A stretch of 64,000 bases of DNA from Paracoccaceae bacterium (GCA_965203605.1 OZ241902.1:2345425-2409424); one strand, 5' to 3'. Shown: positions 5,364 through 52,230, counted from the stretch's first letter. Notes: generated from the letters alone by a model not told the origin. Program-made: numbers and translations.

Positions 5364-5987
5364 TGGATACCTTTCGAGTGCGAGATCCGATTTCGTCGCG
5401 AGTTAGCACGATCCAGACCTCCAGGGTAAGTGGCTTTGGTTCCTCTCTGTCCATCAGCTGCTTTTTTCGCATACCGTTCTTCGCGATCCATCGGAATTTT
5501 CCCGCCCGAACGGTGCACTAACCAGCGTCCGGTAGTGTCATCAACCAATCAAGAATGGACCGAATCAGGCTCGCAAACGGAGAATCCGCATGGACAGGAC
5601 GCGATGCGAACATATGCCGACCGCGTTCAGACTTCCCCGGAAGAAGGCCAAGGCCCGACTCCGGTTCGATCACTCGCCTGTCGATCATCCTTGGCGATGC
5701 AACGCCTCGTCGAGGAAGTGCGTCGGCTGTTTCAGGAATATCTGGGAGGTTCATCACTCACGCGGATCTGCACCGCTCTCTGGATATGTGCCGCTGGAAA
5801 GCAGAGGGCATGGTGAATGTCCCGGCGGCTACCCAACGCCATACGCTGAAGCAGCCAGACCCAATGGTCAGGAAACCTCCGTGGTAGCGTCATCATCGGC
5901 GGGGTCAGAGACTGGCGCGTCCAAATCGGTGGACGGTACAGTTGGCTGGCAGATGCGTCGTGAAAACGGTATGCGAAGGGTAGCTTG

Positions 5988-7106
5988 ATGGATATCCACC
6001 AACATGACTCTCAAGGTGTTCGGGAAATGGAGACAACGACTTTGGAGAGATGCCTGTCTGAGCCCCGGATTCGCGGAGTTGATGTCTTTTGCGGAGTAGG
6101 TGGGCTCACGAGGGGTCTGGAGGATGCAGGTATTGGCATGGATCTGGGTATCGACATCGATCCGGCCTGCGAGTATCCGTACAGCGAGAACAACCGCGCA
6201 AACTTCCTGAGAAAGTCTGTCAAGGATGTCACGGCCCGCGAATTGCGAGCCGCTTTCGGCAACGCTCAACTCAGATTGCTGGCGGGATGCGCACCATGCC
6301 AACCGTTCTCGACATACAGCCAGGGACGATCCAGTCAAACCGATGAACGCTGGAACCTGCTTTCAGAGTTCCAGCGCCTCGTCATGGAAGCACGTCCGCA
6401 TCTCGTGACAATGGAGAACGTTCCCCGCCTAGGCCGCGAACCGCTGTTCGCAGAATTCGTAGCCGCTCTCGAGGAAGACGGTTTCCATGTCTTTCACGAG
6501 GTGGTCAACTGCGCCGACTACGGCGTTCCGCAGCAGCGCAAGCGGCTGGTACTCCTGGCGTCCGTTCTTGGTCCAATCCGGCTCATGCGTCCGACGACCC
6601 CTGGTAGCCGTCGAATTACGGTTGGGCAGGCCATCGGCGCTCTTCCGGCCATCACGGCAGGCGAGATCCACAAATGCGACCCTCTCCATCAAGCGTGTAA
6701 GCTGTCGCCGCTGAACCTTGAACGCATCCGTGCGTCTCGCCCTGGCGGGACATGGCGTGACTGGGAACGGCGTCTTCAGGCCACCTGCCATCGGAAGAAG
6801 GCAGGTAAGTCGTACCCAAGTGTCTACGGCCGGATGGTTTGGACCGAACCGTCCCCCACTGTTACGACACAGTTCTATGGCTTCGGGAACGGGCGATTTG
6901 GACACCCTGAACAGGACCGCGCGATTTCATTGCGCGAGGGAGCGATTCTGCAGAGCTTTCCGGAGAACTACCGGTTCGTTCCCAAGGGCGCTCCCATCAT
7001 CAGGAAAACGGTCGGGCGTCTCATCGGAAACGCCGTGCCCGTCAGGCTGGGGACTGAAATAGGCAACAGCATGGTTCAGCACGTTGCGGAGACCGTCAAT
7101 GACTGA
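5988..7106 (+). CDS. DNA (cytosine-5)-methyltransferase, Dcm-like.
   Basis: C5-MTase motifs: I DVFCGVGGL, IV GCAPCQPFS, VI ENVPRL, VIII QQRKRLVL, X GNAVPV. The ORF track starts at TTG 5985; the ATG is at 5988. Confidence 0.9.
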   Translation: MDIHQHDSQGVREMETTTLERCLSEPRIRGVDVFCGVGGLTRGLEDAGIGMDLGIDIDPACEYPYSENNRANFLRKSVKDVTARELRAAFGNAQLRLLAGCAPCQPFSTYSQGRSSQTDERWNLLSEFQRLVMEARPHLVTMENVPRLGREPLFAEFVAALEEDGFHVFHEVVNCADYGVPQQRKRLVLLASVLGPIRLMRPTTPGSRRITVGQAIGALPAITAGEIHKCDPLHQACKLSPLNLERIRASRPGGTWRDWERRLQATCHRKKAGKSYPSVYGRMVWTEPSPTVTTQFYGFGNGRFGHPEQDRAISLREGAILQSFPENYRFVPKGAPIIRKTVGRLIGNAVPVRLGTEIGNSMVQHVAETVND

Positions 7107-9102
7107 ATTGTCACGAGCTGTGGCGCCGAACAGTCCGGACGGGACCAACTCTGGCACTCCGTTCAGGATGACCGTCGACCTGAACGTGCTCAACCATCTG
7201 GGAATCAAGCTCTACAGTTCGATTCCCGCCGTTCTCTCGGAGGCGGTGGCGAACGCCTGGGATGCCGATGCGGAATTGGTTGAGATCGAAATCGCAGGCA
7301 ACCGCATTGTCATCACCGATGACGGCCACGGAATGACCACCTCTGACATCAACTCGAAATTCCTAAAGGTCGGTTATCAGCGCCGCAGGGAGGGGCTGGC
7401 GACAACACTTCGAGGCCGCGCAGTTCTCGGAAGAAAGGGCATCGGCAAGCTATCCCTCTTTTCCATCGCCAATACGATTGAAGTGCACAGTTGCAAAGAC
7501 GGCCAACGATCCGGACTGCTACTAAGCCTACCGGGAATTCAGGAGAGCATAGATCGTCAGTCAGGGGAGTACTTTCCCGACGAGGTGCCATCGGAACGGA
7601 TTGATATCAAGGAAGGGACCCGACTCGAGATTCGCGACCTGCGGAAACGCACCACCCTGACCCCGCCTACTCTTCGGCGGCGCTTAGCAAGGCGTTTTTC
7701 TTCAATTGGGAACGACATGGACGGGATGCGCTTCGACGTCAAGATCAATGGCGAAGCGGTAACAGCCGAGGATCGGGAATTCTACCGCAAGGTAGAGTAC
7801 CTCTGGACCTTTGGCGAGCGCGGCAAGGAGGTCGCGTCGCTGGCGAAAGCAAATAAGGGGTGCTTCGCACGAAAGACCGAAGGCAACTTTTCCGGATGGA
7901 TAGGCACTGTCGCGTCCGCCGGAGATCTTGTGAGCGAGGATGGCGACAATCTAAATGACATCCAGATCATGGTGCGCGGCAAGGTGGCTCAGGAACGAAC
8001 TCTGGAAAAGTTCGGTGAAGACGGACTCTACGCCCGCTACGTCGTTGGTGAGATTCATGCGGACTGGCTTGACGACGACAACATGGAGGATATCGCAACC
8101 ACCAGCCGCCAGTCCCTCATCGAAGACGATCCTCGTGTCGAGAAACTCTGGAGAGGCATCCGCCAAGAGTTAAAGCATATACAGAACCAATGGACTGATC
8201 TGAGGACAAGGAAGGGAGTACAGGCAGCTCTCAGGGTACCGGAGGTCAAGGACTGGTTCGAAACCCTGGGAAGCGACCAGAAGTCGAAAGCCCGACAACT
8301 GTTCGGGAAAATCAACAGCCTGAAGCTTGACTTCTCGGACAAGAAGCCGCTGTTCAAGTACGGCGTACTGGCGTTCGAAAGGCTCAAGCTCCGCGATAGT
8401 CTCAGCAACCTCGACCAGCTGCAGGACGGAGATGTCGCAGGCTATCTGAAGGCATATGCCTACCATGACGACCTCGAAGCACAGCTCTACTATGAGATTT
8501 CGAAAGGTCGACTCGAGGTCATCGAGAGCTTTCAGGATCTCGTTGACCACAACAGCCTGGAGAGAGTCCTGCAGCAGTTCCTCTTCGAGCACCTGTGGCT
8601 ACTTGATCCATCCTGGGATCGCGCCACATCAGAGCCAGTGATGGAAAGAGAAGTGCGAAATGCTGTATTGGACAACGACGAGTTTGATGGAGAGTACCTG
8701 GAGGAGGTCGGGCGCATCGACATCCAATACCGGAAATCCGGTGGCAAGCACGTCATAATCGAGCTGAAGCGCGCAGGAGTCACAACGGACACATTCAAAC
8801 TTCTCAATCAGGTTCAGAAGTACCAACGTAAGCTGAAGCAAATATTGGTCCATAACGGACGATCAAACGAGGACTATGAGATCATCTGCATTGTCGGAAA
8901 GGACTTGGCGGATTGGGGGGAGCCGTCCGGTCGTGAGCAATCCAAGAAAATCCTCGACGCGGTAGGCGCACGAGTCGTTACATATGACGAAATGACGAGC
9001 AACGCTCGCCGTGCCTATAGAGAATATCTTGATGCGACGACCAGTGCCGGAAAGATACATAGGGTGATCAAGGCAATTGAAGCTGGTTTGGTGGAAGTAT
9101 GA
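7099..9102 (+). CDS. GHKL-superfamily ATPase (HATPase_c_3 / MORC-MutL-like) with a C-terminal PD-(D/E)xK-like module. Probable restriction/defence partner of the adjacent methylase.
   Basis: N-terminal Bergerat-fold boxes: N-box EAVANAWDADA, G1 DDGHGM, G2 GRKGIGKLSLFS. The C-terminal ...LWLLDPSWDRA...GRIDIQYRKSGGKHVIIELKRAG resembles a D...ExK nuclease core. ATG 7099 overlaps the dcm stop (ATGACTGA). Local GC is visibly lower than the flanks. Confidence 0.8.
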   Translation: MTELSRAVAPNSPDGTNSGTPFRMTVDLNVLNHLGIKLYSSIPAVLSEAVANAWDADAELVEIEIAGNRIVITDDGHGMTTSDINSKFLKVGYQRRREGLATTLRGRAVLGRKGIGKLSLFSIANTIEVHSCKDGQRSGLLLSLPGIQESIDRQSGEYFPDEVPSERIDIKEGTRLEIRDLRKRTTLTPPTLRRRLARRFSSIGNDMDGMRFDVKINGEAVTAEDREFYRKVEYLWTFGERGKEVASLAKANKGCFARKTEGNFSGWIGTVASAGDLVSEDGDNLNDIQIMVRGKVAQERTLEKFGEDGLYARYVVGEIHADWLDDDNMEDIATTSRQSLIEDDPRVEKLWRGIRQELKHIQNQWTDLRTRKGVQAALRVPEVKDWFETLGSDQKSKARQLFGKINSLKLDFSDKKPLFKYGVLAFERLKLRDSLSNLDQLQDGDVAGYLKAYAYHDDLEAQLYYEISKGRLEVIESFQDLVDHNSLERVLQQFLFEHLWLLDPSWDRATSEPVMEREVRNAVLDNDEFDGEYLEEVGRIDIQYRKSGGKHVIIELKRAGVTTDTFKLLNQVQKYQRKLKQILVHNGRSNEDYEIICIVGKDLADWGEPSGREQSKKILDAVGARVVTYDEMTSNARRAYREYLDATTSAGKIHRVIKAIEAGLVEV

Positions 9103-9626
9103 AGAGGTTACGTCATGCATTCTCGGATCCGCGTCATCACAATACAAATGGCCAAACAGAGCGGCCACAGCGGTATGATTGCCTCATATCGCGGAGTGCT
9201 GCCAGAGACCGCCCCTGCGACCGGAACCTGTCGCGACCCTAGCGGCATCTTGACCTGCGGCTCTCGACTGTTTCGGCGATTGCGAAGGAATGACTCAAGA
9301 GCGACTGAACGTCCTGGGCCAGAGACGTGTCTTCTAGGCTGGGCCAGTCACATCGCAGCACTACGGGCATAACATTTCTGCAATAATGGCCTCTCTGGAT
9401 GCGGCTCCAACCTGTAGCGTGCGATCACCTCGTCGGCATCCATCTGCAAATGCACCTCGTTACTGATGCCCGTCCAGCTGCGCCATCCGGTTGACATCGT
9501 CCATGGCTACCGCGACGGATGCCTGCAATCGGTGAAATCGACATGTCCGAGGTCACCTGACGGTTACGGCAGCGAATGGTCTTCAACGTAAGGGTCACAG
9601 CGGAATGGACCGTCGGCGCAAACGGC

Positions 9627-11183
9627 TCAGAAGTCCGTCGGAGCGCCACCTTCGCGCTTGCGCCTGGCGACGAAGTCGACGAGTTCTTCGTGGATCCCTG
9701 GATCCATGGGCGGCGGCTCAAAACCACGCAGTATGTCTTTGGCCAGTCGGTGCGCCCTTTCCGCGGTCCAGACCTCTCCCGCGAGTGACCAAGCCTCGTA
9801 ATTCCTCCAGTCCGAAACGAACGGCTGGTAGAAGGCCGTCTCATACCGCTCCTGGGTATGCTGGACCCCGAAGAAATGTCCGGAGCTTCCAACCTCCCTT
9901 ATCGCCTCAAGCGCGAGGTTGTCCCGGCCAGTATTCCAGATCTCAGGCTCGAAATACCTCTGGATCATCTGCAGGAGCTCGCAGTCCATGACAAACTTCT
10001 CTGGGCTGGCGATCAGCCCGCCCTCCAGCCATCCGGCGGCGTGGTAAACCATGTTCGTGCCTGACTGCACCGCCGACCAGAGGGAATTCGATGTCTCCCA
10101 CATGGATTGACCATCAGGTATGTTTGCCGTGCAGACGCCGCTCGCTCGCATCGGCAGCCCATACAGGCGTGCCATCTGACCTGTCATCTGGGTCGCGCGC
10201 ATATATTCCGGTGTGCCGAACGCAGGGGCTCCCGACTTCATGTCCACGTTGGAAGTGAACGTGCCGAAGACGCAGGCGCATCCCGGCGCGACATACTGAA
10301 ACAAAGCGATCGCACACAGCGCCTCGGCGATCGACTGCGCCACCGCACCCGCCATCGTAACCGGCGACATGGCACCTGCCAGCGTGAAGGGCGAGACCAC
10401 AACCGCCTGCCCGCGTCGAACGCACCGCAGGCATCCGTCAATCATTGGATGATCATGTTTCAGGGGTGAAGTGGAATTGATGTTGGTATACATCCGCGGC
10501 TTGGCCTGGAACTCATCCTCCGCAAGGCCACAGGCGATCCTGACCATTTCCATGACATCCTCGACTCGCTCCCTACCCAGGCTATAGGCATGCATCACCT
10601 TGTCAGTGAGCGTCAGCTTGTCGAACACGACGTCGAGGTGGCGGACCGCAGCATGGACATCCACGGGCTCGACCGGGTAGCCACCGGCAAAGTGAATGCA
10701 GTTGAAATACTGGGTCAGCCTGAGCAGGTCGGCACATTGCTCGCGGGTGCCAGGTGTCTTTCCGCCATCGAGCGACCAATGGTTCGGTGGCGAACTCACA
10801 TTGCCGAACACAATGCTGTCGCCCCCGATCTTCAAAGCCCTTCCAGGGTTGCGCGGGACGAGCATGAACTCACTTGGCGCACGGTCCAGCATTTCCATGA
10901 CGAACTCCCGGCCCATCCGCACGTTCTGCCCGCTGACGGCACAGCCGGCCTTCCGGAAAATTCCCAGACTCTCCTCGTTGAGGAATTCCACTCCGATTTC
11001 CTCCAGAATCCGCATGGCGCAGTTATGAACCGCCTGTATGCCCTCTTCGTCCAGTGGTTCAGTCGGCCGATCAGGGTTCCGGGGAATCCTCCACGACGTC
11101 TGCGAAATCGCCTCTGGGCTGTTCCTGCGTGGATTGCCGGCCCGTCCACCAGATCGTTTCCTCCGCGGTTTCGCTTCGGTCAT
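9627..11183 (-). CDS. MttB-superfamily corrinoid-dependent methyltransferase (non-pyrrolysine glycine-betaine/quaternary-amine type).
   Basis: 518 aa from MTEAKPRRKRSGG... with strong family-level similarity over its full length, e.g. FTLAGAMSPVTMAGAVAQ, YHAAGWLEGGL. There is no in-frame amber codon. The ORF-track N-terminal extension (to 11534) is discarded. Confidence 0.85.
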   Translation of the reverse strand: MTEAKPRRKRSGGRAGNPRRNSPEAISQTSWRIPRNPDRPTEPLDEEGIQAVHNCAMRILEEIGVEFLNEESLGIFRKAGCAVSGQNVRMGREFVMEMLDRAPSEFMLVPRNPGRALKIGGDSIVFGNVSSPPNHWSLDGGKTPGTREQCADLLRLTQYFNCIHFAGGYPVEPVDVHAAVRHLDVVFDKLTLTDKVMHAYSLGRERVEDVMEMVRIACGLAEDEFQAKPRMYTNINSTSPLKHDHPMIDGCLRCVRRGQAVVVSPFTLAGAMSPVTMAGAVAQSIAEALCAIALFQYVAPGCACVFGTFTSNVDMKSGAPAFGTPEYMRATQMTGQMARLYGLPMRASGVCTANIPDGQSMWETSNSLWSAVQSGTNMVYHAAGWLEGGLIASPEKFVMDCELLQMIQRYFEPEIWNTGRDNLALEAIREVGSSGHFFGVQHTQERYETAFYQPFVSDWRNYEAWSLAGEVWTAERAHRLAKDILRGFEPPPMDPGIHEELVDFVARRKREGGAPTDF

Positions 11184-11317: not shown

Positions 11318-12022
11318 TCAATCTGCGTGACCGACAATCCAGTGTGGCAGATGGCCGATGTTCGGAAGCACCGCCGTGGCAAGCGTCGCCAGATCCGACC
11401 TGGTAGCGCGCCCGTTCAGCACCGCGACTGTTCGCATGCCGGCGGCACGCCCCGCCAGAAGATCCGTTGCACTGTCGCCGACCATCAGGAGGTTGGCTGG
11501 CGAAAGCCCAATCGCCGCAGCAAAGGCCAAACACATGCCGGGCAGCGGCTTGGCACCGAATCCGCTGTCATAACCCGCGATGAATTCGAACTCCTCTCCG
11601 ACCTGCGCGGCAGAGAGGTGCGTTCTGGCCACCACCTCGGAATCGTTCGTTGCGACGCCCAGACGAAGCCCCATGGCACGAAGTTCGGCAAGAAGTGGCC
11701 CAAGTGGGACTGCCTCGGCGATTGGAACGCACGCTGCGCTCGCATTGATCGCCGCAAGTAAGTCCGCGGACTCCACGCCAGGCAAGCCCGGCATCAAACG
11801 GCGGACAATATCTTCCGGCGTCCCTGCGATCACCTCACTGTCAGGTGCAAACCTCTTTTCCTGTGGGTCGAACCCTATCAGAGCGCCAAGCGACCGCACC
11901 TCAGCGTTGTAGCTCTCGGCGAGTTCACCGAGCATCGCTTCTGCCCAGACGTTCCATGTAGCCTCGAATTCGAACAGTGTCCCATCCTTGTCAAACAGGA
12001 TCCCGAGTATCGGCTCCGCCAT
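11318..12022 (-). CDS. HAD-family hydrolase (phosphoglycolate-phosphatase-like).
   Basis: Motif I (ILFDKDGTLFEF) lies immediately after the ATG at 12022. HAD motifs IV (MVGDSATD) are present. Confidence 0.8.
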   Translation of the reverse strand: MAEPILGILFDKDGTLFEFEATWNVWAEAMLGELAESYNAEVRSLGALIGFDPQEKRFAPDSEVIAGTPEDIVRRLMPGLPGVESADLLAAINASAACVPIAEAVPLGPLLAELRAMGLRLGVATNDSEVVARTHLSAAQVGEEFEFIAGYDSGFGAKPLPGMCLAFAAAIGLSPANLLMVGDSATDLLAGRAAGMRTVAVLNGRATRSDLATLATAVLPNIGHLPHWIVGHAD

Positions 12023-12084
12023 CTTGTCCTCCCGGGCCGCATCGCGCGTTGACAGCGATGCCAGAATAATTGACAGTGACAACC

Positions 12085-12540
12085 ATGTCAGGGACAGCAC
12101 CCTATCATCTACACGCTTCGCTGGGCTACCAATTATCACTAGCGGCCCGCATTCAGGAGCGGCGCCTGGAAGAACATCTGAAATCGCTTGGCCTGACGAG
12201 AACCACCTGGTGCGTTCTTCTCGCAATTGGCAATGAGGGCTTGGCGCAGCCCTCCGACATCGCGCACTTTATTGGAATCGACCGAACAGCCGCTAGCCGT
12301 GCGCTGAGGCAGATGCAGGACCGTGGCCTGATCGACAGAGTCGCGGGTCAGGGAGATGGACGCACGCGGACCGTCGTGCTGACGGAACTCGGAACCGACC
12401 AGCTGGCCAAGGGCATACCGATGGCCGAAGACAACAATGCCGTAATGGAAGCTCAACTCGGTGAACGTGGTCGTGAAGACCTGATCCGTCTTCTGCGGAT
12501 CACACACGCAGGTGACGATATCACACTAAGCAGGATCTAG
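12085..12540 (+). CDS. MarR-family transcriptional regulator.
   Basis: Winged-HTH MarR pattern (LTRTTWCVLLAIGNEGLAQPSDIAHFIGIDRTAASRALRQMQDRGLIDR). The ATG is at 12085; the track uses TTG 12070. Confidence 0.8.
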   Translation: MSGTAPYHLHASLGYQLSLAARIQERRLEEHLKSLGLTRTTWCVLLAIGNEGLAQPSDIAHFIGIDRTAASRALRQMQDRGLIDRVAGQGDGRTRTVVLTELGTDQLAKGIPMAEDNNAVMEAQLGERGREDLIRLLRITHAGDDITLSRI

Positions 12541-12545
12541 ATCAG

Positions 12546-15500
12546 ATGGCCAAGTTTCGTTCGTACAGGAATCGGCCGCCTCACCTGGGCTCGTATCCAC
12601 TGGAGCGGCTTGCGCGGGTGGGGTCCTCCCCCAAGCTCGAACGTCTTGGGCCGATGAATGGCCTGAGTTTCCGTCGGCCGGACAATCCACTGAGTATCGT
12701 CAACGCGATGCAGGAATATCAAGCCATGCTGGACGCAACTCGGGAGGGACTCGTCAAGCGCGAGCAGGCCGAGATTCCATCAGATCCCGGACAACGGGCC
12801 GAACACCTCAAGGCTTTTGGGTATTACTGTGACGCAAGCCAGGTCGGGATTTGCGAACTCCCGGCTGCCGCGCTTCTCGACACACCCGTAACCAATCCCG
12901 ACGTTGAACGTCTCGCCGAAAAGATTCGGACGATGCAACCGAAGACGCTGGCTGCCGGAATTGACGTGATCATGGCCGGCCTTAGGGAATCACTGAGAAG
13001 ACCGCCGATGGACTGCCGCCATCATAGGCATGCACTTGTGTTTCTGTATGACATGCCGCGGACTCCAAGGGTGGACGAACCGGGTGGCGACTGGATCCAT
13101 GACGCCCAGTCACATCGAGCCTGCCTTCGGGCAATGGAGACGGCGGTGACGCTGGCGAACTACATCCGATTGTTGGGATGGGAGGCGCGGGCGCACTCGG
13201 AAGCGGCATCCGACTTACATCTCCACCAGCTCAGCGTGGCTGCCGGCCTGAACTGGATTGACGGTGACGTGGCGGTAAATCCCTTCCTTGGCCGCAACTA
13301 CGGACTGGCAGCCGTCACGACAACGCTCGAACTGGCGCCGGATGAACCCTTGGCGCCGAATCAGAAGCCGGGACTTACTTGGAGGACCGGTCTCGGCCGC
13401 CACGCCAAATCCGCCCGCAACCGCGATCCCTACCGCTCCCGCGATTTCCGCGACGGCCCTCATCCCTTCGAAACACTCAAAAGGGTCAACGAGCCCACCA
13501 CCTACATCGACCGCGATAATGTCGCCCGTGTGCCAAAGCGCGCCAACATGTTCGCGAGGTCACTGTTCGGCGATCTTGGCAAGGCCGTTCAGGAAGGAGC
13601 ACGGAACGGCAACTATGTGCGCAAATCCGCTGCCGCGTTCGCTTTCCGCCCAAGCCTCGGCGCATTCATCCTGCTGCAGGACGGCGACAGGAGAGAGGTG
13701 CATCCCTCTACGCTCGACCCGGAAACAAACGCCAACAACATCAAGGCTGCGCTCTATTTCCTTGGCATGGATGCCGTTGGGCTCTCGGCCTGTCCCGACT
13801 GGACCTACTATAGCCATGACGCGGCTGGAAATCCAATCACACCTTACCATGGGCATGCGGTCAGCATGATCGTGGACCAGGGTCATGAAACCATGGAAGG
13901 CGCGTCCGGCGATGATTGGATCGCCTGCGCCCAATCCATGCGAGCCTATCTTCGATTCTCGTTGATCGGCGGCGTCCTGGCCCAGCATATACGGAACCTT
14001 GGCTATTCGGCCAGAACACACACGGTCATGGACGACGAAGTTCTCCATCCGCCACTTCTGCTTCTTTCGGGCCTGGGGGAGGTAAGCCGTATCGGAGAGG
14101 TTATCCTCAACCCTTTCCTCGGGCCACGCCTCAAGTCCGGCGTCGTCACGACCACTATGCCCATCACGCATGATCGGCCCATCGATTTTGGCCTGCAACG
14201 GTTCTGTGAAGCCTGCAACAAATGCGCGCGCGAATGTCCGTCAGGGGCGATCACCGCAGGTCCGAAACTGATGTTCAACGGTTACGAGATATGGAAATCC
14301 GACAGCCAGAAATGCACGACCTATCGCGTAGCTCAAAAGAACGGCGCGATGTGTGGACGATGCATGAAGACCTGTCCCTGGAACCTGGAAGGTCTGTTCG
14401 CTGAAAAACCGTTCCGCTGGGTGGCAATGAAAGCGCCCTTCGCGGCCCGCGCATTGGCGAAGCTGGATGATCTGGTCGGCAATGGCGAAATCAACCCGGT
14501 CAAGAAGTGGTGGTGGGATCTCGAGATGGTTGACGACGGACCATATCGCAGATCACCGCATGACCCAAATGCCCGGGCACTCTCCAAGGGGCTGGAACTG
14601 AAGTACGAGGACCAGACACTGGCCGTCTATCCAGCACCTCTCGCACCGCCGCCGCATGCCTGGCCTTTTCCTATGGACAGAGAGGCGGGAATTGCCGCCT
14701 ACAGGGCCATGATCAGTGCTGACGAGCACAGGAAACGGCGTGCCGAAGGCAAGCCAGCTGAACACATCTATGTTGCCGAGGGAGGTGAGAGTCCTGTGCT
14801 TCAGGTCAGCGTCTCGAAGGCCGTGCGACTGACACCTGACATCACGCTGTACGAATTCAGGATGCCTGACGGATCTCTACTGCCCCGCGCCGACGCCGGA
14901 GCACATGTCGACGTGGTCGTGGCACCCGAGTTCTTCCGTCAGTATTCCCTTTCGGGGGATCCGGCTGATCGATCAAAGTACCAGATCGCAGTTCTTCGGG
15001 AAGACGACGGAAAGGGCGGCTCAAAGCTCCTGCACCGCATTTTCGAGGAGGGACGGCGAATATTCATCAGCCACCCAATCAACCACTTTCCACTCGTGGA
15101 ACATGCGTCTTTCACCTATCTCATGGGAGGGGGAATCGGAATTACACCGATGGTCGCCATGGCACACAGGCTTCATTTGATCGGCGCAGCATTCGAACTG
15201 CATTACTCCTGTTCAAAGCGCTCCAACGCCGGGTTTCTGGATATCGTTGCTGCCGCGCCATGGAACGATCATGTGACATATCACTTTTCCGATGATGGCA
15301 CGCGAGCGGTCCTCGCGGAGATTATGCGTTATCGTGAGGGAGCCCACGTGTATACCTGTGGACCGGATGCCTATATGCAGGCGGTCATTGACACCGCTTC
15401 CGCGAACGGCTTTCCGGAAGACTCGCGGCACCTTGAGTACTTCTCCGTCCCCGAACAGCCCGAATACGAGAACCATCCATTCCAACTCAGACTGATCCGG

Positions 15501-15740
15501 TCCGGCAGGACGGTCCCTGTGACTCCTGACGAAGCGGGAACTGACGCGGTGCTTTCGGCCGGCATACATGTTGACGTCAAATGCTCAGACGGACTCTGCG
15601 GCGTCTGCAGGTGCACGGTCCTGAGTGGTGAGGTCGAACACCGTGATTTCGTGCTGTCACGGAAGCAGCGTGAAACCAGCATGATCCTGTGCCAGTCGCG
15701 TGCAGCGCAGCCCAACGGGACGCTGGAAATCGATCTTTGA
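12546..15740 (+). CDS. Catabolic (NpRdhA/BhbA-type) reductive-dehalogenase-like B12/Fe-S protein fused to a VanB/phthalate-dioxygenase-reductase-type NAD(P)H:ferredoxin reductase.
   Basis: There are two tandem RdhA-like halves: ...LKAFGYYCDASQVGICEL... and ...IKAALYFLGMDAVGLSACPDWTYYSH...GLGEVSRIGEVILNPFLGPRLK... Two 4Fe-4S motifs follow (FCEACNKCARECPSGAI; C-x12-CGRCMKTCP). The C-terminus is an FNR-like domain (RQYSLS, GGGIGITPM) plus a plant-type 2Fe-2S ferredoxin (CSDGLCGVCRC). The MarR gene sits immediately upstream. Confidence 0.65.
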   Translation: MAKFRSYRNRPPHLGSYPLERLARVGSSPKLERLGPMNGLSFRRPDNPLSIVNAMQEYQAMLDATREGLVKREQAEIPSDPGQRAEHLKAFGYYCDASQVGICELPAAALLDTPVTNPDVERLAEKIRTMQPKTLAAGIDVIMAGLRESLRRPPMDCRHHRHALVFLYDMPRTPRVDEPGGDWIHDAQSHRACLRAMETAVTLANYIRLLGWEARAHSEAASDLHLHQLSVAAGLNWIDGDVAVNPFLGRNYGLAAVTTTLELAPDEPLAPNQKPGLTWRTGLGRHAKSARNRDPYRSRDFRDGPHPFETLKRVNEPTTYIDRDNVARVPKRANMFARSLFGDLGKAVQEGARNGNYVRKSAAAFAFRPSLGAFILLQDGDRREVHPSTLDPETNANNIKAALYFLGMDAVGLSACPDWTYYSHDAAGNPITPYHGHAVSMIVDQGHETMEGASGDDWIACAQSMRAYLRFSLIGGVLAQHIRNLGYSARTHTVMDDEVLHPPLLLLSGLGEVSRIGEVILNPFLGPRLKSGVVTTTMPITHDRPIDFGLQRFCEACNKCARECPSGAITAGPKLMFNGYEIWKSDSQKCTTYRVAQKNGAMCGRCMKTCPWNLEGLFAEKPFRWVAMKAPFAARALAKLDDLVGNGEINPVKKWWWDLEMVDDGPYRRSPHDPNARALSKGLELKYEDQTLAVYPAPLAPPPHAWPFPMDREAGIAAYRAMISADEHRKRRAEGKPAEHIYVAEGGESPVLQVSVSKAVRLTPDITLYEFRMPDGSLLPRADAGAHVDVVVAPEFFRQYSLSGDPADRSKYQIAVLREDDGKGGSKLLHRIFEEGRRIFISHPINHFPLVEHASFTYLMGGGIGITPMVAMAHRLHLIGAAFELHYSCSKRSNAGFLDIVAAAPWNDHVTYHFSDDGTRAVLAEIMRYREGAHVYTCGPDAYMQAVIDTASANGFPEDSRHLEYFSVPEQPEYENHPFQLRLIRSGRTVPVTPDEAGTDAVLSAGIHVDVKCSDGLCGVCRCTVLSGEVEHRDFVLSRKQRETSMILCQSRAAQPNGTLEIDL

Positions 15741-15998: not shown

Positions 15999-16277
15999 TC
16001 AAGTCCAATGAACCTCCAAGCCGCCCGGTAAAGCGCTCCGGGCCTGCATCGGCACCTCATAGGGCAAACCTTCGGCATCACAGAAAGCGATGATCCACGC
16101 GTCGTCCGTTGCAAGGAAATCCAGGATCGAGATCAGGAAAGCAGGATCATCGGCCTGCGCCCTCAGATCTTCGGGATTCGACCCAGTCGCGCCAAGAAAT
16201 GCCGACACCAATTCTCCGTTGCCTGCGAGCCATCCCAGCGCTCTGGCCGCAATCATCTCGGCCTGATCCTGCGTCAT
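15999..16277 (-). CDS. Small conserved hypothetical protein (DUF3572-like).
   Basis: 92-aa ORF MTQDQAEMIAARALGWLAGNGELVSAFLGATGSNPEDLRA... The family assignment is from memory only. Confidence 0.5.
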   Translation of the reverse strand: MTQDQAEMIAARALGWLAGNGELVSAFLGATGSNPEDLRAQADDPAFLISILDFLATDDAWIIAFCDAEGLPYEVPMQARSALPGGLEVHWT

Positions 16278-28637: not shown

Positions 28638-30101
28638 ATGGCCAGAGCCATCATGATACAGGGAACGGGTTCGAATGTCGGCAAGTCTCTGGTTGTTGCA
28701 GGCCTCGCCCGAGCGCTTGCGAACCGGGGGCTTTCGGTGGCACCGTTCAAGCCACAGAATATGTCCAACAATTCGGCGGTCACCATTGATGGAGGTGAAA
28801 TTGGTCGGGCTCAGGCGCTGCAGGCTCGAGCTGCGAGGCAACCACCGACTGTTGACATGAATCCGGTTCTCCTGAAACCTGAATCTGAAACCGGTGCCCA
28901 GGTCGTGGTTCAGGGCCGCCGGATGACAACGGTGAAGGCGGGCTGTTACGCTAATCTAAAGCCGAAACTACTCCCCAGGGTGATGGAGAGTTTTGCCAGA
29001 CTCGCCAGATCTGCCGATCTTGTCCTGATCGAAGGCGCAGGCAGTCCAGCGGAAACGAATTTACGTGAGGGAGACATTGCAAACATGGGCTTTGCCGAAG
29101 CCGCTGACGTGCCCGCCCTACTTGTCGCGGACATCCACCGGGGAGGGGTGATAGCCCAGCTGGTTGGAACCCATGAGGTTCTTGAGCCGACAGACAGAGG
29201 CCGGATTTCAGCGTTTCTGATCAATAAGTTTCGTGGAGATGTTTCGCTATTTCAAAACGCGGTGCCGGAGATCGAGCGGCGTACAGGCTGGACAGGCCTC
29301 GGCGTTCTTCCATGGTTCAACGAAGCCTGGAAACTGCCGGCCGAGGACGTAATGGACATTGATTCCGCCTCTGGTGGACCACTCAGGATCGCGGTGCCCC
29401 GCTTGAGCCGGATCGCGAATTTCGACGACCTTGACCCGCTTGTGGCGGAACCAGGGGTAACCGTCGAAATCGTGGAACCAGGACGCGCACTTCCTGGCGA
29501 TGCGAATCTCGTGCTGATTCCGGGCTCGAAATCGACGATCGGGGATCTCTGCGACTTCCGAAACCAAGGCTGGGACATCGATCTTCTGGCTCACGTAAGG
29601 CGTGGTGGCCACGTTCTTGGTATCTGCGGAGGCTATCAGATGCTAGGAATGGAGATCATCGACGCCCAAGGCATCGAAGGCATGGCTGGACGTTTTCCCG
29701 GCCTCGGTCTCTTGAATGTGGTGACCGAAATGTGCCCGGAAAAACGGACCACGAGAACGGAAGCGGTCTATCCGGTGACAGGCGATAGGGTATCGGGATA
29801 CGAGATTCACCTTGGCCAGACGGAAGGCCCTGATCGGGAGCGGGCATGGTTGCGTATCGGTGAACGCACCGAAGGGGCGGCCAGTCCGGACGGACGGGTG
29901 CGCGGCTGCTATCTCCACGGAATATTTTCATCGGACGGCTTCAGAAGTTCTTTCCTTTCTGAATTGGGAGGTGAAGGAAGTGGAATTTGCCATGACTCAA
30001 TGACGGATACAACTCTGGAGGAATTGGCGGTGCATCTGGAAAGACACATGGATATCGACACTCTCTTGAACCTAACGGGAGAGACGCATCGCGGAGCATG
30101 A
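28638..30101 (+). CDS. cobQ: Cobyric acid synthase.
   Basis: 487 aa, [27 protein letters not shown]..., with a DTB-synthetase-like N-domain plus a GATase-1 C-domain ([10 protein letters not shown]). Confidence 0.95.
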
Positions 30102-36602: not shown

Positions 36603-36676
36603 GGTGAGTTGGCGGAGAGGCTACGCAGCGGACTGCAAATCCGTGTACACCGGTTCGAATCCGGTACTCACCTCCA
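36603..36676 (+). tRNA. tRNA-Cys (GCA).
   Basis: 74 nt. Acceptor stem GGTGAGT/ACTCACC, anticodon loop CTGCAAA, T-arm GGTTCGAATCC, 3' CCA encoded. It aligns position-by-position with E. coli tRNA-Cys. Confidence 0.9.
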
Positions 36677-40816: not shown

Positions 40817-42607
40817 TCACTGACTCCCGGCAAAAACATAGGTTCCCGGAGCCGGTGCCATCATGGGGTTCTCCGAGCCACCGAGCTGGCGGGCAGGAAT
40901 TCGCTCGCCGGAGTGCATCGCAAGCCATTCGCCCCACCGCGGCCACCAGCTACCTTCATGGGCCTCCGCCCCCTCACGCCACGCTTCGGGCTTCAGATCC
41001 ATGTCATCATTGGTGAAATGTCCGTATTTTCTCTTTCCAGGTGGATTGATGATGCCGGCGATGTGCCCGGATTCGGACAGAATGAAACGCTTCGACTCAG
41101 ATCCCATTCTCGAAAACCCTGTGAAGCTGGACGTCCAGGCTGCGATGTGGTCGGTTTCGCAGGCAATGGCGCATAGGGGCACCTGAACGTCTTTCACGGA
41201 AAGCCTTTCGCCGAGTATTTCCAGTCCGCCATCGGAGAACCGGTTCTCCTGGCAAAGCCAGCGAAGGTATTCGACGGCCATTCTTCCCGGAAGATTGGTG
41301 CCGTCGCCATTCCAGTACAGCAGGTCAAATGCCGGAGGCGGTTCTCCCAACATGTAACTGCGGACCGCTGGACCATAGACCAGGTCGTTGGCCCTGAGGA
41401 ACGAGAAGGTCCTCGCCATGAGAAAGCTCTCAAGCATACCATTCCGCTCACATTCGGCCTCGATGGCCCCAACGAAATCATCCGTCAGGAACGGCGTGAA
41501 CTCACCCTGGTCCGAGAAGTCGGTAAGGGTGGTGAAAAACGTTGCCGACCTGACCGAACTGTCCTTTTTCGCTTTCAGGTAAGACAGCGTCAGCGCAAGA
41601 GCCGTCCCGCCAATGCAATAGCCGACCGCGTTGACCTGACTTTCGCCGGCTATCCTCCGCACCTGCTCGATGGCCGTCAGATAGCCCTCCTGCATATAGG
41701 TATCGATGCCGACATCGGCATAGGACGCGTCCGGGTTTTTCCAGCTGACCACGAACAGCGTGAAACCCTGCTCGACGATCCAGCGAATCAGTGAATTGGC
41801 GGGCCGGAGGTCCATGATATAGAACTTGTTGATCCACGGTGGGAATACGACCAGCGGCACCTCGTGGGCGGTCTCGGTCACCGGTCTGTACTGGATCAGT
41901 TCAAACATCCGGTTCCGGAAAACCACCGCACCTTCGGTCGTTGCGATGTTGCCGCCAACGGTGAATGCATCCCTGTCCGCCAGTGTGACCATCAGACCAT
42001 CCTTGCTGGACTCGATGTCCCGTACAAGATTCTCGAGACCGTCGACCAACGACTGCCCGTCAGTCTCCACCGCTCTCGACAGGGCTTCAGGATTGGTCGC
42101 CAGAAAGTTCGTCGGCGCCAACATGTCGATGATCTGACCTGCGAAGTACTCCACACGGCGCCGTTCAGTATCATCGAGTCCATCCAAGCCCTCCAGCGAC
42201 GCCCTGATCGCGTCGGCGTTCAGGAGATACTGCCGACGCACAAAGGAAAAATAGGGATGGGTCGTCCACATGTCGCTGGAAAAGCGTCGGTCCTTCGGTG
42301 TACCTTCGCCGTCCTCGGCCGACCTGCCGGTCATAAGTGCGTTCTGAGCCTGCACATAGTGCTCCAGCGTCCTGCTCCAGTAGCCAACCTGGCTTTCAAG
42401 AATTCTTGTGGGGTCGCTCATCATCTGGGCCCACCAGGCACCGGCGGCTTTCAGAAAGAGGTCCATACCCGGCCCCTGGAGGTCGGGGCTTACCTGCCGC
42501 CTGTTTGCGAGCGCGGACACCATACGCTGCGAAAGCTCCTCGATTCTGGCAAGGTTTGCCTGCAGTTTGCCAATATTCCGCCCTACGGCACCATCATCTG
42601 TTGTCAT
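40817..42607 (-). CDS. phaC: Class I poly(3-hydroxyalkanoate) synthase.
   Basis: 596 aa with the lipase-box GYCIGGT and a conserved alpha/beta-hydrolase C-domain. Confidence 0.95.
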   Translation of the reverse strand: MTTDDGAVGRNIGKLQANLARIEELSQRMVSALANRRQVSPDLQGPGMDLFLKAAGAWWAQMMSDPTRILESQVGYWSRTLEHYVQAQNALMTGRSAEDGEGTPKDRRFSSDMWTTHPYFSFVRRQYLLNADAIRASLEGLDGLDDTERRRVEYFAGQIIDMLAPTNFLATNPEALSRAVETDGQSLVDGLENLVRDIESSKDGLMVTLADRDAFTVGGNIATTEGAVVFRNRMFELIQYRPVTETAHEVPLVVFPPWINKFYIMDLRPANSLIRWIVEQGFTLFVVSWKNPDASYADVGIDTYMQEGYLTAIEQVRRIAGESQVNAVGYCIGGTALALTLSYLKAKKDSSVRSATFFTTLTDFSDQGEFTPFLTDDFVGAIEAECERNGMLESFLMARTFSFLRANDLVYGPAVRSYMLGEPPPAFDLLYWNGDGTNLPGRMAVEYLRWLCQENRFSDGGLEILGERLSVKDVQVPLCAIACETDHIAAWTSSFTGFSRMGSESKRFILSESGHIAGIINPPGKRKYGHFTNDDMDLKPEAWREGAEAHEGSWWPRWGEWLAMHSGERIPARQLGGSENPMMAPAPGTYVFAGSQ

Positions 42608-42707
42608 CGCCAGGAATCCGTCTATTTTGCACTTGCAGCATAAAACGTGTAGCCAATTCGGTAAACGCGGCTTTTTGACATGCGTCGAACAACAAGGAGC
42701 AGTGCGT

Positions 42708-44018
42708 ATGCACTACATGGCAAACTACGACCTAATGGAGACGGTCCGCAACACCAACCAATGGCTTGGCGCCACAGCGCTTGCGATCGGATCATACCCA
42801 GTGACCGGTCTGTTGCCCCTTCCGTTCTTTCCGTTGCTCTCGGCTTGGGGTGAGGTGACGGAGCGCGCATTCGCCCGCATTGTCGCCAAGCCTGACTGGG
42901 GCATTCGGACATTCACCTGCGAGGATGGGCGCGACCGCTTGGTTGATATCGTGACCGTGGTCGAAAGACCGTTCGGAGACCTCATCCACTTTCGTGTCCA
43001 GGGGCGCCCACCCCAGCCTCGCCGGGTGCTTCTGGTCGCGCCAATGTCGGGTCACCACTCAACGCTGCTGCGATCGACTGTGAAGAGCCTGATCACGAAC
43101 TGTGAAGTCTATGTGACGGATTGGCACAACGCCCGCGACATTCCGGTTTCGATGGGGAAGTTCGATATTGAGGACCATACCCGTTATCTCGCTGACTTCA
43201 TGCGGGACCTAGGCCCGGACATCCATGTCATCGCCATCTGCCAACCGGCTCCTTTGGCGTTGGCAGCCACGGCGCTTCTTGCCGAACAGGATCCGAAAGC
43301 ACAGCCACGTACATTGACACTGATTGGCGGACCGGTCGATCCAGACGCCGCGCCAACGGAAGTCACCGACTTCGGACGCCGCCTGACGATGGGTCAACTT
43401 GAGGGCCTTGCCATCCAAAGGGTTGGATTCAAATACGCTGGAGCGGGTCGTTTGGTCTATCCGGGTATGCTGCAATTGGCGGGCTTCATTTCGATGAACC
43501 CGGAAAGCCATTCCAAGGCCTTCACCGAACAGATAATCCGCGTCGCCAAGGGTGAGGCTGGTGACCATGATCGGCATAATCGGTTCTACGACGAGTATCT
43601 CGCCGTGATGGACATGACGGCGGAATTCTACCTTTCAACCGTCAAACGAATTTTCAAGTCGCGCGAAATCGCCCGCAACAGATTCTTCGTCGGCGATAGC
43701 CATGTCGACATCGGGAAGATAACGGACGTCGCTGTAAAGGTGGTTGAAGGCGAGGAGGATGACATCAGTGCTCCCGGTCAATGTCTCGCGGCGCTTGATC
43801 TGCTGACAGGCCTCCCTTCGGAAATGAAGGCCAGTCACCTTGAACCCGGTGCGGGTCATTACGGGATATTTGCAGGCCGGTCCTGGCGCGAAAACATCCG
43901 CCCGCTCGTGCTAGACTTCATTGAGAGCAATTCCGGTCGGGCGCGGAGACCGCCCTCAGGTCCGAAGACCTCTCCAGACCAGACACTCATGAAACCGACG
44001 GCGGGCGCAGCTCAGTGA
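42708..44018 (+). CDS. phaZ: Intracellular poly(3-hydroxybutyrate) depolymerase.
   Basis: 436 aa from MHYMANYDLMETVRNTNQW... (PHB_depo_C family signature region). It is divergent from phaC with a 100-bp intergenic region. Confidence 0.9.
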   Translation: MHYMANYDLMETVRNTNQWLGATALAIGSYPVTGLLPLPFFPLLSAWGEVTERAFARIVAKPDWGIRTFTCEDGRDRLVDIVTVVERPFGDLIHFRVQGRPPQPRRVLLVAPMSGHHSTLLRSTVKSLITNCEVYVTDWHNARDIPVSMGKFDIEDHTRYLADFMRDLGPDIHVIAICQPAPLALAATALLAEQDPKAQPRTLTLIGGPVDPDAAPTEVTDFGRRLTMGQLEGLAIQRVGFKYAGAGRLVYPGMLQLAGFISMNPESHSKAFTEQIIRVAKGEAGDHDRHNRFYDEYLAVMDMTAEFYLSTVKRIFKSREIARNRFFVGDSHVDIGKITDVAVKVVEGEEDDISAPGQCLAALDLLTGLPSEMKASHLEPGAGHYGIFAGRSWRENIRPLVLDFIESNSGRARRPPSGPKTSPDQTLMKPTAGAAQ

Positions 44019-44817
44019 GCGTCGCGTCGACGCGACAGCTCCCAAATCCACCAGGCACCCCCCACAGTTCCAGTCACCCCAATGTGGACGGATAGAGGTC
44101 GCTTTCCTGTCCCTCCGGCCGCCTAGCCCAGGCGAAGGAAGCCTGGATCTGGCCGAATCCCGGCAAAGCGGCATCGCCCCTTGGGCACAAACCAGTTCCT
44201 GCGAGGCAACCGTCGGCACAAGTTGATTCCTTGATCTGAAGGTCACGGTTCCATCCGCTCCGGCGGATTCTCTTGATGCCCCACTCCCATTCCGAACGGC
44301 AACGCCGTCCCCGGAACGGCTATTGTCCCTTGCCGAGGCAGCCTGTCCGCGCCGCGCCCGCCCTCGCCAGGGCGGGTCGCGTCCGTCCGGCAACGGCTTT
44401 CGGATAGACTTACTGCGCCGCGCACGATCTTTTCGATCCTCAAACCCATGACATGGGGTGACCCGATAGGGCAGGAGAACTCTCTTTGTCTGACGCACAT
44501 TCTTTGTTTGCAATCGGCGTCCGTATTGGTCAAGAAGGTCAAGGAAGATAGACGAAGGGTTTCCACCTCGCGCGAGCGCGACGGTCGTACTTCTGTGCAA
44601 CGCCAGAGCGCTGAAGGAGCCTCTCGAAGCGGCCACCGGAGAGCGCCTCAGCGACTGTGGAGAAAAGGGCATCGCAGGTGATGTCGTTTAGGTCAAACGC
44701 AACAGGATCGTGGATGCGGTGCGCTGGCGCATGGACGCCGGAGTGGCCGCAGGCGGGACTCCCGTTCGCCCCGCCGGCCGTCGGCGGCATGGCCCGGCGC
44801 CGCGCAGGGAGGCATAG

Positions 44818-45504
44818 ATGACCCGGCAGCGACTTCCGATCGGGATCCAGGACTTCCGGACCATCCGGAGCGGGGGCTTCCACTATGTCGACAAGACCCC
44901 GCTGGTCCGGCGGCTGGTGGACGAGGGGCGCCACTACTTCCTGTCCCGCCCGCGCCGCTTCGGCAAGAGCCTGCTGCTCGACACGCCGGGATCGCTGTTC
45001 GCCTGCGACGAGGCCCTGTTCCGGGGGCTGGACATCCACCCGCACTGGGACTGGTCCGCGCCGCACCCGGTGGTGCGGCTGAGCTTCGGCGGGAAGTACA
45101 GCGAGCCGGGGGAGATCGCAGGGGACATCATCGAGCAGCTGGAGGGCATCGAGAGCGAGCACGATCCTGCGCCTGCCCGGACATCCGATACCGGCCCGAG
45201 GCGTCTCCGCAACCTTCTCCGTCGTCTTCACGGCGCCACCGGCCGGCCGGTGGCGGTGCTGGTGGACGAGTACGACAAGCCGATCCTGGACGTGCTGCAT
45301 GACCCGGACCTGGCGAGGGCCAACCGGGACCACCTGCGGGGCTTCTACGGCATCGTCAAGGACAGCGCCCGGCATGTCCGCTTCACCTTCGTCACCGGGG
45401 TGAGCATGTTCTCGAAGGCCAGCCTGTTCCCGGGCCTCAACAATCTGGAGGACATCAGCCTCGACCCGCGCTTCGCCGCGGTCTGCGGCTACCGGGAGGA
45501 GGAC
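44818..45504 (+). pseudogene. N-terminal fragment of a PF09820 AAA-ATPase-like / PDDEXK_9 protein, truncated by IS insertion.
   Basis: MTRQRLPIGIQDFRTIRSGGFHYVDKTPLVRRLVDEGRHYFLSRPRRFGKSLLLDT matches the PF09820 N-terminal consensus. The reading frame ends in a TGA supplied by the IS end (45511-45513). Confidence 0.75.
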
Positions 45505-45524
45505 CTCTCTTGAGTAAAACATCC

Positions 45525-46916: not shown

Positions 46917-47049
46917 GATCTCCAGATGCCATGAGACACGCCGCCGTTTGCCTTCGCGGGTGATTCGGTGCAAGGGAATGACGATGTTTCAACATGTTGT
47001 GGCGGGGGGCCATTTGACGGCAACCCCCGCCCTGTGAAAGGAGAATGAA

Positions 47050-48417: not shown

Positions 48418-48552
48418 CCGCAGGAGGGCCTGGTTCGCCGCAGGACGCGGCACCGTCCATTCCAGATGGGTCCCGCCCCCCGGAACGTCGCACCGGCCCG
48501 AATCGGGCATGATGGTCACGGGGCCGGCACCGGCCAACCGAACCGGATAAGA

Positions 48553-49180: not shown

Positions 49181-49201
49181 TCTCTCTTGAGTAAAACATC
49201 C

Positions 49202-50593: not shown

Positions 50594-50726
50594 GATCTCC
50601 AGATGCCATGAGACACGCCGCCGTTTGCCTTCGCGGGTGATTCGGTGCAAGGGAATGACGATGTTTCAACATGTTGTGGCGGGGGGCCATTTGACGGCAA
50701 CCCCCGCCCTGTGAAAGGAGAATGAA

Positions 50727-52031: not shown

Positions 52032-52230
52032 GAGGGCAACGGAACACCCGGGCGGCCCGACGGGGCCTCCGGGGAACCCGGGCAGGGCGTGTGACCGCAG
52101 GAGGGCCTGGTTCGCCGCAGGACGCGGCACCGTCCATTCCAGATGGGTCCCGCCCCCCGGAACGTCGCACCGGCCCGAATCGGGCATGATGGTCACGGGG
52201 CCGGCACCGGCCAACCGAACCGGATAAGAG

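Follow-up and report, generated by a model that had tools for sequence, protein, structure and literature searches.

A fused reductive dehalogenase of the catabolic type and an adjacent MarR regulator on a Paracoccaceae chromosome: predicted function, candidate operator and distribution

The marR-rdhA locus

A stretch of 64,000 nucleotides (nt) from a Paracoccaceae bacterium (GCA_965203605.1 OZ241902.1:2345425-2409424), called here the window, harbors an intact two-gene unit composed of marR, which encodes a MarR-family regulator of 151 amino acids (aa), and rdhA-PDOR (hereafter rdhA), which encodes a 1064-aa protein of the reductive dehalogenase (RdhA) family that continues into a reductase of the phthalate dioxygenase reductase (PDR) type (Table 1). 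The marR stop codon and the rdhA ATG are separated by 5 nt, an AGGA sequence lies 11 nt 5' of the rdhA ATG, and the two genes are presumably co-transcribed. The longest possible marR open reading frame (ORF) opens at a TTG at 12070, the ATG being found at 12085. Both products are present in public data with identical sequences, the regulator as a called gene and the 1064-aa protein among the protein entries. From sequence and fold comparisons it is highly probable that the rdhA product is a cytoplasmic, NAD(P)H-driven and B12-dependent self-sufficient catabolic RdhA whose operon would be repressed by MarR. Though itself uncharacterised, it belongs to an already described enzyme type and brings no new principle; new here are a candidate palindromic operator, the probable repeated loss of MarR and a substrate pocket that appears specific to the orthologue group.

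Table 1. Genes, protein domains and regulatory features of the marR-rdhA locus, with positions in the window.
Feature	Position	Strand	Evidence
rdhA-PDOR, 1064-aa ORF	12546-15740 (stop codon included)	+	ORF call, family and structure matches
marR, 151-aa MarR-family winged-helix regulator	12085-12540	+	PF12802, PF01047
Divergent HAD-superfamily hydrolase, phosphatase type, motif I FDKDGTL	11318-12022	-	PF00702, PF13419
MttB-superfamily methyltransferase, without in-frame amber codon	9627-11183	-	PF06253, 725 bits
DUF3572 protein, convergent with rdhA	15999-16277	-	PF12096, 111 bits
TTGACA box, -35-like	12049-12054	+	15 nt upstream of the palindrome; putative promoter function
Putative MarR operator TTGACAGTGACAA	12070-12082	.	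One mismatch to the palindrome TTGACAnTGTCAA
Insert of ~49 aa, residues 107-155	12864-13010	+	In BhbA, not in NpRdhA (three-way alignment)
Vestigial cobalamin-core copy, residues 159-269	13020-13352	+	Self-alignment to 434-546
Functional cobalamin core, residues 431-548, S464 M465 Y468 K530	13836-14189	+	TIGR02486, PceA, NpRdhA mapping
Two [4Fe-4S] motifs	14205-14378	+	Pfam, motif location; substrate-binding R594 between the motifs
FNR-like flavin and NAD(P)H module, residues 746-975, RQYS, GGGIGITP, CGP	14781-15470	+	2pia, 6kbh
Plant-type [2Fe-2S] ferredoxin domain, residues 976-1064	15471-15740	+	PF00111, 39 bits

Family membership and domain anatomy

The 1064-aa protein scores 205.1 bits with the NCBIfam RdhA model TIGR02486 (cutoff 160.35), with the best stretch at residues 438-645, and 21.7 bits with the QueG model (cutoff 200), which confirms the RdhA identity given by an earlier reading of the locus made from the sequence alone (the sequence-only reading) and disposes of epoxyqueuosine reductase, a family named there as a competing outcome. 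By sequence, the best match among solved structures is NpRdhA (4RAS, 6ZXU; E=3.9e-163 over residues 5-105 and 156-730), and PceA (PDB 4UQU) matches over residues 449-656, which make up the cobalamin and Fe-S core (E=2e-29). At its C-terminal end the window protein matches phthalate dioxygenase reductase (2pia, E=2.8e-50 over residues 751-1056) and the reductase module of a CYP116B P450 (6kbh, E=2.7e-56), in agreement with the PDR-type reductase proposed before. The AlphaFold2 model, for which 54 family sequences were used, has a mean predicted local distance difference test (pLDDT) score of 71 and a predicted template modelling score (pTM) of 0.70, and is confident in the N-terminal domain and the reductase module and poor in the cofactor loops. 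The top Foldseek match was NpRdhA (target-normalised template modelling score 0.76, E=5e-50), followed by CYP116B and PDR-type modules.

Residues 159-269 align with residues 434-546 of the same protein at 35% identity (E=5e-14), and the internal duplication is therefore real; the tandem halves described in the sequence-only reading, of which the first is degenerate, are borne out. The N-terminal copy, with pLDDT values mostly between 80 and 95, carries Cys193 in place of the catalytic tyrosine and Gly253 in place of the catalytic lysine, and by analogy with NpRdhA it would have lost cobalamin binding. Such a vestigial, cobalamin-less domain defines the catabolic RdhAs and mimics the dimer partner of the respiratory enzymes (PMC10463259). 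The stretch at residues 107-155, helical in the AlphaFold model at moderate to high confidence, corresponds on alignment to the fusion-specific insert of Fisher et al. (2023), which was modelled as folding over the active site (PMC10463259).

The remaining motifs named in the sequence-only reading (the RdhA core, RxYS, GGGIGITP and the 2Fe-2S ferredoxin) were all located in the protein. The RdhA core motif GLGEVSRIGEVILNPFLGPR is found at aa 509-528, and F336 is contributed by a lid region that precedes the cobalamin core. There are two 4Fe-4S motifs, as had been stated: the first is CEACNKCARECP at aa 554-565 (C554, C557, C560 and C564), while the second reads C590-x12-C603-x2-C606-x3-C610-P (C590-x12-CGRCMKTCP) and not CxxC..CxxxCP as had been written. 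RQYS and GGGIGITP are located at aa 798-801 and 861-868, respectively, in a flavin and NAD(P)H module with pLDDT of about 85-95, and the ferredoxin domain shows the 2Fe-2S pattern C1013-x4-C1018-x2-C1021-x27-C1049. Residue conservation was scored over 122-123 family sequences: all 12 cysteine ligands of the Fe-S clusters are invariant, the eight of the 4Fe-4S motifs in 123 of 123 sequences.

Membership of the RdhA family would also be compatible with a respiratory enzyme that serves organohalide respiration, but the anatomy of the protein effectively refutes this. No twin-arginine translocation (Tat) motif is present, as had been noted, since the sole RR pair in the first 60 residues (43-44) is not followed by a hydrophobic region; no membrane helix is predicted (maximum 19-residue hydropathy 1.28) and no RdhB-like small membrane ORF that could act as an anchor is found near rdhA. 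Additionally, an NAD(P)H reductase module is built into the polypeptide, together with the vestigial duplicate domain that is the hallmark of the catabolic enzymes (PMC10463259).

Active site and predicted substrate class

Alignment with NpRdhA and BhbA, as proposed in the sequence-only reading, shows that the three proteins share six active-site residues: F291, S422, M423, Y426, K488 and R552 of NpRdhA correspond to F336, S464, M465, Y468, K530 and R594 of the window protein, and all six are invariant in the family sequences. Structures of NpRdhA with its substrates show the phenol hydroxyl bound by S422, K488 and R552, with Y426 placed so that it can protonate the carbon that loses the halogen (PMC7565698). 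Since the residues for the phenol hydroxyl and the halide are invariant, the substrate class can be predicted and would be ortho-halogenated phenolics; by analogy with NpRdhA, BhbA and JtRdhA, bromo- or iodophenolics are the most likely. All characterised members of the catabolic subfamily dehalogenate ortho-halophenols (PMC10463259).

The hydrophobic half of the pocket presents a different picture. In NpRdhA the hydrophobic wall is formed by F290, F310, P311, A419 and M423, of which A419 lines the pocket for a second bromine, and K307 stands at the entrance (PMC7565698). F290, K307, F310, P311, A419 and N452 of NpRdhA correspond to M335, A352, Y357, V358, C461 and V494 of the window protein, and where the window protein has M335, Y357, C461 and V494, BhbA has F339, S361, S465 and A498. 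Among 122 sequences M335 is kept in 106, Y357 in 118, V358 in 115, C461 in 117 and V494 in 119, and the entrance position 352 is taken by different small residues (A in 58, T in 48, S in 14), so that the hydrophobic pocket, as read from these alignments, appears to be specific to the orthologue group of the window protein. The exact natural substrate is not predictable because this half of the pocket is unlike that of both NpRdhA and BhbA; the statement in the sequence-only reading that the substrate cannot be predicted thus stands for the individual compound and not for the class.

Distribution and genomic context

The best 120 database matches are all 1040-1087 aa long and 71-95% identical to the window protein; they come mostly from marine Paracoccaceae and Roseobacteraceae, and some are already named 'reductive dehalogenase'. 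A relative is encoded by 531 reference species genomes, mostly of marine Rhodobacterales, and the architecture can therefore not be called rare; this is the point on which the sequence-only reading, otherwise supported, failed. The nearest copy in a reference genome is that of a 'Rhodobacter sp.' metagenome-assembled genome (86% identity). Neighbourhoods were counted over the best 80 loci from these genomes, all at least 68% identical; in 78 of them the match covers query residues 1 (or 3) to 1064, and the other two (L056 and L064) are cut by contig ends.

The chromosomal neighbourhood of rdhA is strikingly stable, with the HAD gene present in 70 of the 80 loci, the DUF3572 gene in 61 and the MttB-superfamily gene in 52. 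In the window the HAD gene is followed by the MttB-like gene, and both are transcribed away from marR-rdhA. The HAD neighbour was considered as a haloacid dehalogenase and rejected, since its motif I (DxDxT) is of the phosphatase type and its best models are phosphatases. The MttB-like protein scores 263 bits with TIGR02369, below the cutoff of 525.

This adjacency raises the question of whether RdhA could be tied to the MttB neighbour as a reductive activator or electron supplier for corrinoid-dependent methyl transfer. In those 52 loci the MttB-like gene lies within about 1.4 kb, the HAD-MttB pair diverges across a shared region of 62 bp, a plasmid paralogue from Jannaschia adjoins betaine transport and methyltransferase genes, and the window protein gives a very weak match to RamA (14.4 bits). 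That match, however, is confined to the Fe-S motif and falls far short of the cutoff of 500, and the Pfam scan of the ORFs found no gene for a corrinoid protein, several small ORFs of the window being outside that scan. The association is also absent in the BhbA, Aminobacter, Nitratireductor, Yoonia and TM1040 contexts, and conserved synteny among related genomes suffices to explain the adjacency, which makes a role in methyl transfer very unlikely. The association with MttB-like or betaine genes recurs only once in six paralogue contexts and was treated as synteny and not as a functional link.

More distant, plasmid-borne paralogues are found in other settings. BhbA is encoded alongside ligAB and a gene for a TTT binding protein, the paralogue of Nitratireductor OM-1 has pobA and protocatechuate dioxygenase genes nearby, and those of Yoonia and Aminobacter sit with TRAP transporters, the Yoonia copy also with a nitrilase. 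These catabolic and transport contexts support substrates of the halogenated hydroxybenzoate type for the subfamily as a whole. On the Yoonia sp. SS1-5 plasmid (L084) rdhA matches in two pieces (7001-10199) and has no coding sequence in PLSDB's incomplete gene table, so this paralogue may be a pseudogene. It lies between a MarR-TRAP cluster and nitrilase-family genes, an arrangement that recalls the bromoxynil pathway (nitrilase, then BhbA).

A different explanation for the conserved locus is that the same fold and cofactors act on a marine substrate other than an organohalide (e.g. an epoxide or another leaving group, in a QueG-like manner), with a housekeeping role in roseobacters. The gene behaves as a vertically inherited chromosomal one that keeps its HAD and DUF3572 neighbours, relatives occur in all 531 species genomes mentioned above, adjacent catabolic genes are absent, and the group-specific pocket (M335, Y357, V358, C461, V494) is conserved, all of which would fit such a role. 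Against it stand the invariance of the residues for the phenol hydroxyl and the halide (S422, Y426, K488 and R552 in NpRdhA), the QueG score far under its cutoff and the fact that the characterised members of the subfamily are all ortho-halophenol dehalogenases (PMC10463259). We regard a non-organohalide substrate as unlikely, and dehalogenation of ortho-halogenated phenolics is kept as the predicted reaction.

MarR regulator and putative operator

The regulator matches PF12802 with 52.2 bits (cutoff 27) and PF01047 with 40.6 bits (cutoff 24.6), and is below the cutoffs of all named NCBIfam equivalogs, the best being Saro_0803 (53 bits versus 200). A MarR-type regulator, Rdh2R, is known from the Dehalococcoides literature, and IclR and MarR regulators were reported near cytosolic rdhA genes in a cold-seep survey (PMC12219181). 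The sequence-only reading placed the regulator directly upstream of rdhA in the manner of RdhR; the position holds, and the likeness to RdhR and Rdh2R is at the family level only, all being MarR-type regulators. MarR is also adjacent to three of the more distant plasmid-borne paralogues (Jannaschia, Yoonia and Aminobacter contexts).

The HAD-marR intergenic region of 62 bp carries a TTGACA box and a palindrome. The palindrome TTGACAGTGACAA stretches from 15 to 3 nt before the marR ATG, which leaves no space for a Shine-Dalgarno sequence. Allowing up to two mismatches, TTGACAnTGTCAA is found near the marR start in 38 of 44 loci that have MarR, in two copies in 10 of them, with a modal offset of -15 as in the window and a background of 0.0064 per 140 nt. 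In the window itself the pattern gives 6 matches versus 1.3 expected, of which the site at 12070 alone has a single mismatch. The TTGACA box is present at a similar distance 5' of the palindrome in most orthologous loci with MarR, and the palindrome itself occurs at -17 before marR-rdhA on an Aminobacter plasmid, from a different order and with an RdhA that is 56% identical. From this recurrence and position we infer that the palindrome is the MarR operator, placed over the -10 and start region; marR would be translated from a leaderless or nearly leaderless mRNA.

MarR is found in 45 of the 80 orthologous loci. Its absence is structured by clade: a Yoonia/Loktanella clade of 21 members and a Litoreibacter clade of 6 members wholly lack it, about 9 changes of state are needed over 81 leaves, and the outlying clades all have MarR. 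This pattern indicates that MarR is probably ancestral and has been lost repeatedly. At one locus (L002, 5536-5754, RdhA 85% identical) a MarR remnant of 73 aa is found 5' of rdhA, which suggests that decay of the regulator is ongoing in that lineage. Additionally, in 13 of 36 loci without MarR the half-sites survive upstream of rdhA, split apart in an inverted repeat of the form TTGACAY-N10-30-RTGTCAA. An example is TTGACACCGGACCC...GACGGTGTCAA, within about 60 nt 5' of rdhA in loci of the Yoonia/Loktanella type, and the repeat was recorded at L034, L036, L037, L045, L048, L054, L055, L057-L059, L068-L070 and L074. A regulator encoded elsewhere may bind it, or it may form a hairpin in the leader.

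Comparison with known systems

To our knowledge, BhbA and JtRdhA are the only fused RdhAs that have been studied biochemically. BhbA (Comamonas sp. 7D-2, WP_015585978, plasmid pBHB), the founding enzyme, has the same architecture as the window protein over its full length (49.2% identity over 1059 positions of the three-way alignment), as the description of the window protein as BhbA-like in the sequence-only reading implied. The two share the vestigial domain, the insert, the cobalamin core, the two [4Fe-4S] motifs, the PDOR module and the six active-site residues. Their genomic settings differ: bhbA lies on a conjugative IncP plasmid in a catabolic cluster (ligAB, a TTT binding protein and IS3) without MarR, whereas the window gene is chromosomal, in a conserved neighbourhood of housekeeping type, with MarR upstream.

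NpRdhA (Nitratireductor pacificus pht-3B; PDB 4RAS, 6ZXU, 6ZXX and 6ZY1), the top match in both sequence and fold, is 45.0% identical over 664 positions of the three-way alignment and shares the vestigial domain, the Tyr-Lys dyad and the Arg, Ser, Met and Phe of the active site. Unlike the window protein, it is naturally truncated, with no PDOR module and with separate redox partners (PMC10463259), and it lacks the ~49-aa insert.

JtRdhA (Jhaorihella thermophila, WP_104007082), which also comes from a marine member of the Rhodobacterales, has the same architecture and active-site set as the window protein, the comparison being made with its published description. It is the sole kinetically characterised fused enzyme and performs tightly coupled, NADPH-driven debromination and deiodination of ortho-halophenols, while chlorinated analogues act on it solely as inhibitors (PMC10463259). 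The best 80 loci (at least 68% identical) include none from Jhaorihella, so the identity of JtRdhA to the window protein is probably below 68% if a Jhaorihella genome is in the collection.

The respiratory RdhAs, such as PceA of Sulfurospirillum multivorans (4UQU), have a homologous cobalamin core and two [4Fe-4S] clusters; in contrast to the window protein, PceA has a Tat signal, is a dimer with an RdhB anchor, and possesses neither the vestigial domain nor a fused reductase. The C-terminal module, with flavin mononucleotide (FMN), NAD(P)H and [2Fe-2S] sites, is homologous to that of the class VII P450s of the CYP116B type (6KBH, 6LAA) and to 2PIA. CYP116B enzymes follow the same design, a catalytic domain fused to a PDR-type reductase, although the catalytic domains are unrelated (haem P450 versus corrinoid and Fe-S). 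The Roseobacter debrominase Ros_A3X954 (2026) was considered as a further comparator and dropped, as it is a different, small reductive dehalogenase without the fusion.

Other features of the window

The remainder of the window is ordinary chromosome (ValS, YgfZ, CobQ, PhaC, PhaZ and ThrRS). An Rfam scan of the window revealed no cobalamin riboswitch or other RNA element near the operon, the sole match being a tRNA at 36603-36673. A CobQ-type cobyric acid synthase is encoded at 28638-30101 (+; PF07685, 185 bits), a sign that corrinoid is synthesised by the bacterium itself, in keeping with a B12-dependent RdhA.

Upstream of the locus, a C5 cytosine DNA methylase (5985-7106, +; PF00145, PADLOC MTase_II/DrmMII at about 290 bits) overlaps by 23 nt with a gene for a 672-aa HATPase_c_3 protein that matches a PADLOC model of a Type II restriction enzyme (302 bits); the two (5985-9102, +) form a Type II restriction-modification pair outside the conserved rdhA synteny. 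PhaC polyhydroxyalkanoate synthase (-) and polyhydroxybutyrate depolymerase (+) are divergent at 40817-44018, and their longest-ORF calls overlap by about 200 nt. From ~44000 to 56000 the GC content rises from about 0.58 to 0.67-0.72, in a block where an IS110-family element (482-aa transposase, GC content at third codon positions 0.90) occurs in three copies that are 100% identical. Two of the copies are direct, 3677 nt apart (45505 and 49182), and one is inverted, with arms of 1633 nt (46921-48553 and 50598-52230 versus 52704-54336); the identical copies could reflect recent transposition or an assembly artefact. Finally, a MbnB/TglH/ChrH (DUF692) protein (345 bits) is followed by a 250-aa ORF with an overlap of 4 nt (61544-63534, +), and the two may be a modification pair of the type that acts on ribosomally synthesized and post-translationally modified peptides.

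Weighing the assignment and a proposed mechanism

Several observations weigh against the assignment of the window protein as a self-sufficient catabolic RdhA under MarR control. Of the two RdhA models named in the sequence-only reading, TIGR02486 passes its cutoff and Pfam PF13486 gives no match to the whole protein or to its parts, even at E<=10; Pfam detects only the Fe-S and ferredoxin domains (PF13484, PF12838 and PF00111). None of the 120 closest relatives has PF13486 in its precomputed Pfam list either, which looks like a gap in the sensitivity of the model for the catabolic clade, and it was set aside as a membership test, the curated NCBIfam model and the matches to solved structures being decisive. 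The nearest characterised enzymes for which identity was measured are only 45-49% identical, and five hydrophobic pocket positions and one entrance position are unlike those of NpRdhA. In the AlphaFold2 model pLDDT is below 50 across the cofactor-binding loops (494-529, 564-609 and 646-703), so the interdomain geometry and the distances for electron transfer, including those between clusters, cannot be judged from it. Among the ORFs of the window, no gene for aromatic ring cleavage or uptake lies beside rdhA, and a catabolic role is thus without the local pathway support that BhbA has. As for the regulator, 35 of the 80 loci do without MarR, which makes it dispensable for rdhA.

The mechanism put forward here builds on homology, domain order and the conservation of cofactor ligands, catalytic residues and operator; cofactor content, electron path and substrate class are extended to the window protein by analogy, with NpRdhA structures and electron paramagnetic resonance (PMC7565698) and JtRdhA kinetics (PMC10463259) as the models. 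NAD(P)H would reduce FMN, the flavin of PDR and JtRdhA, and the electrons would move on through the [2Fe-2S] cluster and both [4Fe-4S] clusters to a corrinoid that sits base-off in the second RdhA half. The substrate, an ortho-halogenated phenolic, would be placed over the cobalt, with its hydroxyl held by S464, K530 and R594 and its halogen directed toward the metal, and a cobalt-halogen adduct would form as in NpRdhA. Two electrons and a proton from the Y468/K530 dyad would then replace the halogen by hydrogen, and bromine and iodine would be preferred over chlorine if the enzyme behaves as JtRdhA does. The N-terminal half would be a structural duplicate without cofactor, standing in for the second subunit found in the dimeric respiratory RdhAs. 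Through the palindrome, which would cover the -10 and start positions, MarR most likely represses its own promoter and with it rdhA; release would come with the binding of a phenolic ligand.

Concluding remarks

The locus places on record a well-conserved group of orthologues whose substrate pocket is distinct, and its candidate pair of operator and regulator could serve to identify the natural inducer. For the bioremediation of brominated phenolics (e.g. flame retardants and herbicides) under aerobic conditions, oxygen-tolerant, NADPH-driven RdhAs are attractive. As a widespread chromosomal trait of marine Rhodobacterales, rdhA also bears on the natural cycling of bromine in oxic seawater. 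Tentatively, rdhA may be an ancient, vertically inherited chromosomal gene of these bacteria dedicated to one natural organohalogen, for which algal or invertebrate bromophenolics are candidates, with MarR and its operator as the ancestral sensor that was lost in several clades and with a possible coordination with the HAD-MttB pair through the 62-bp region. The conserved group-specific pocket and the position fixed across many genera favor this possibility, which we nevertheless hold as doubtful in its entirety; if it is true, abundant marine heterotrophs that live aerobically would routinely be capable of reductive debromination.

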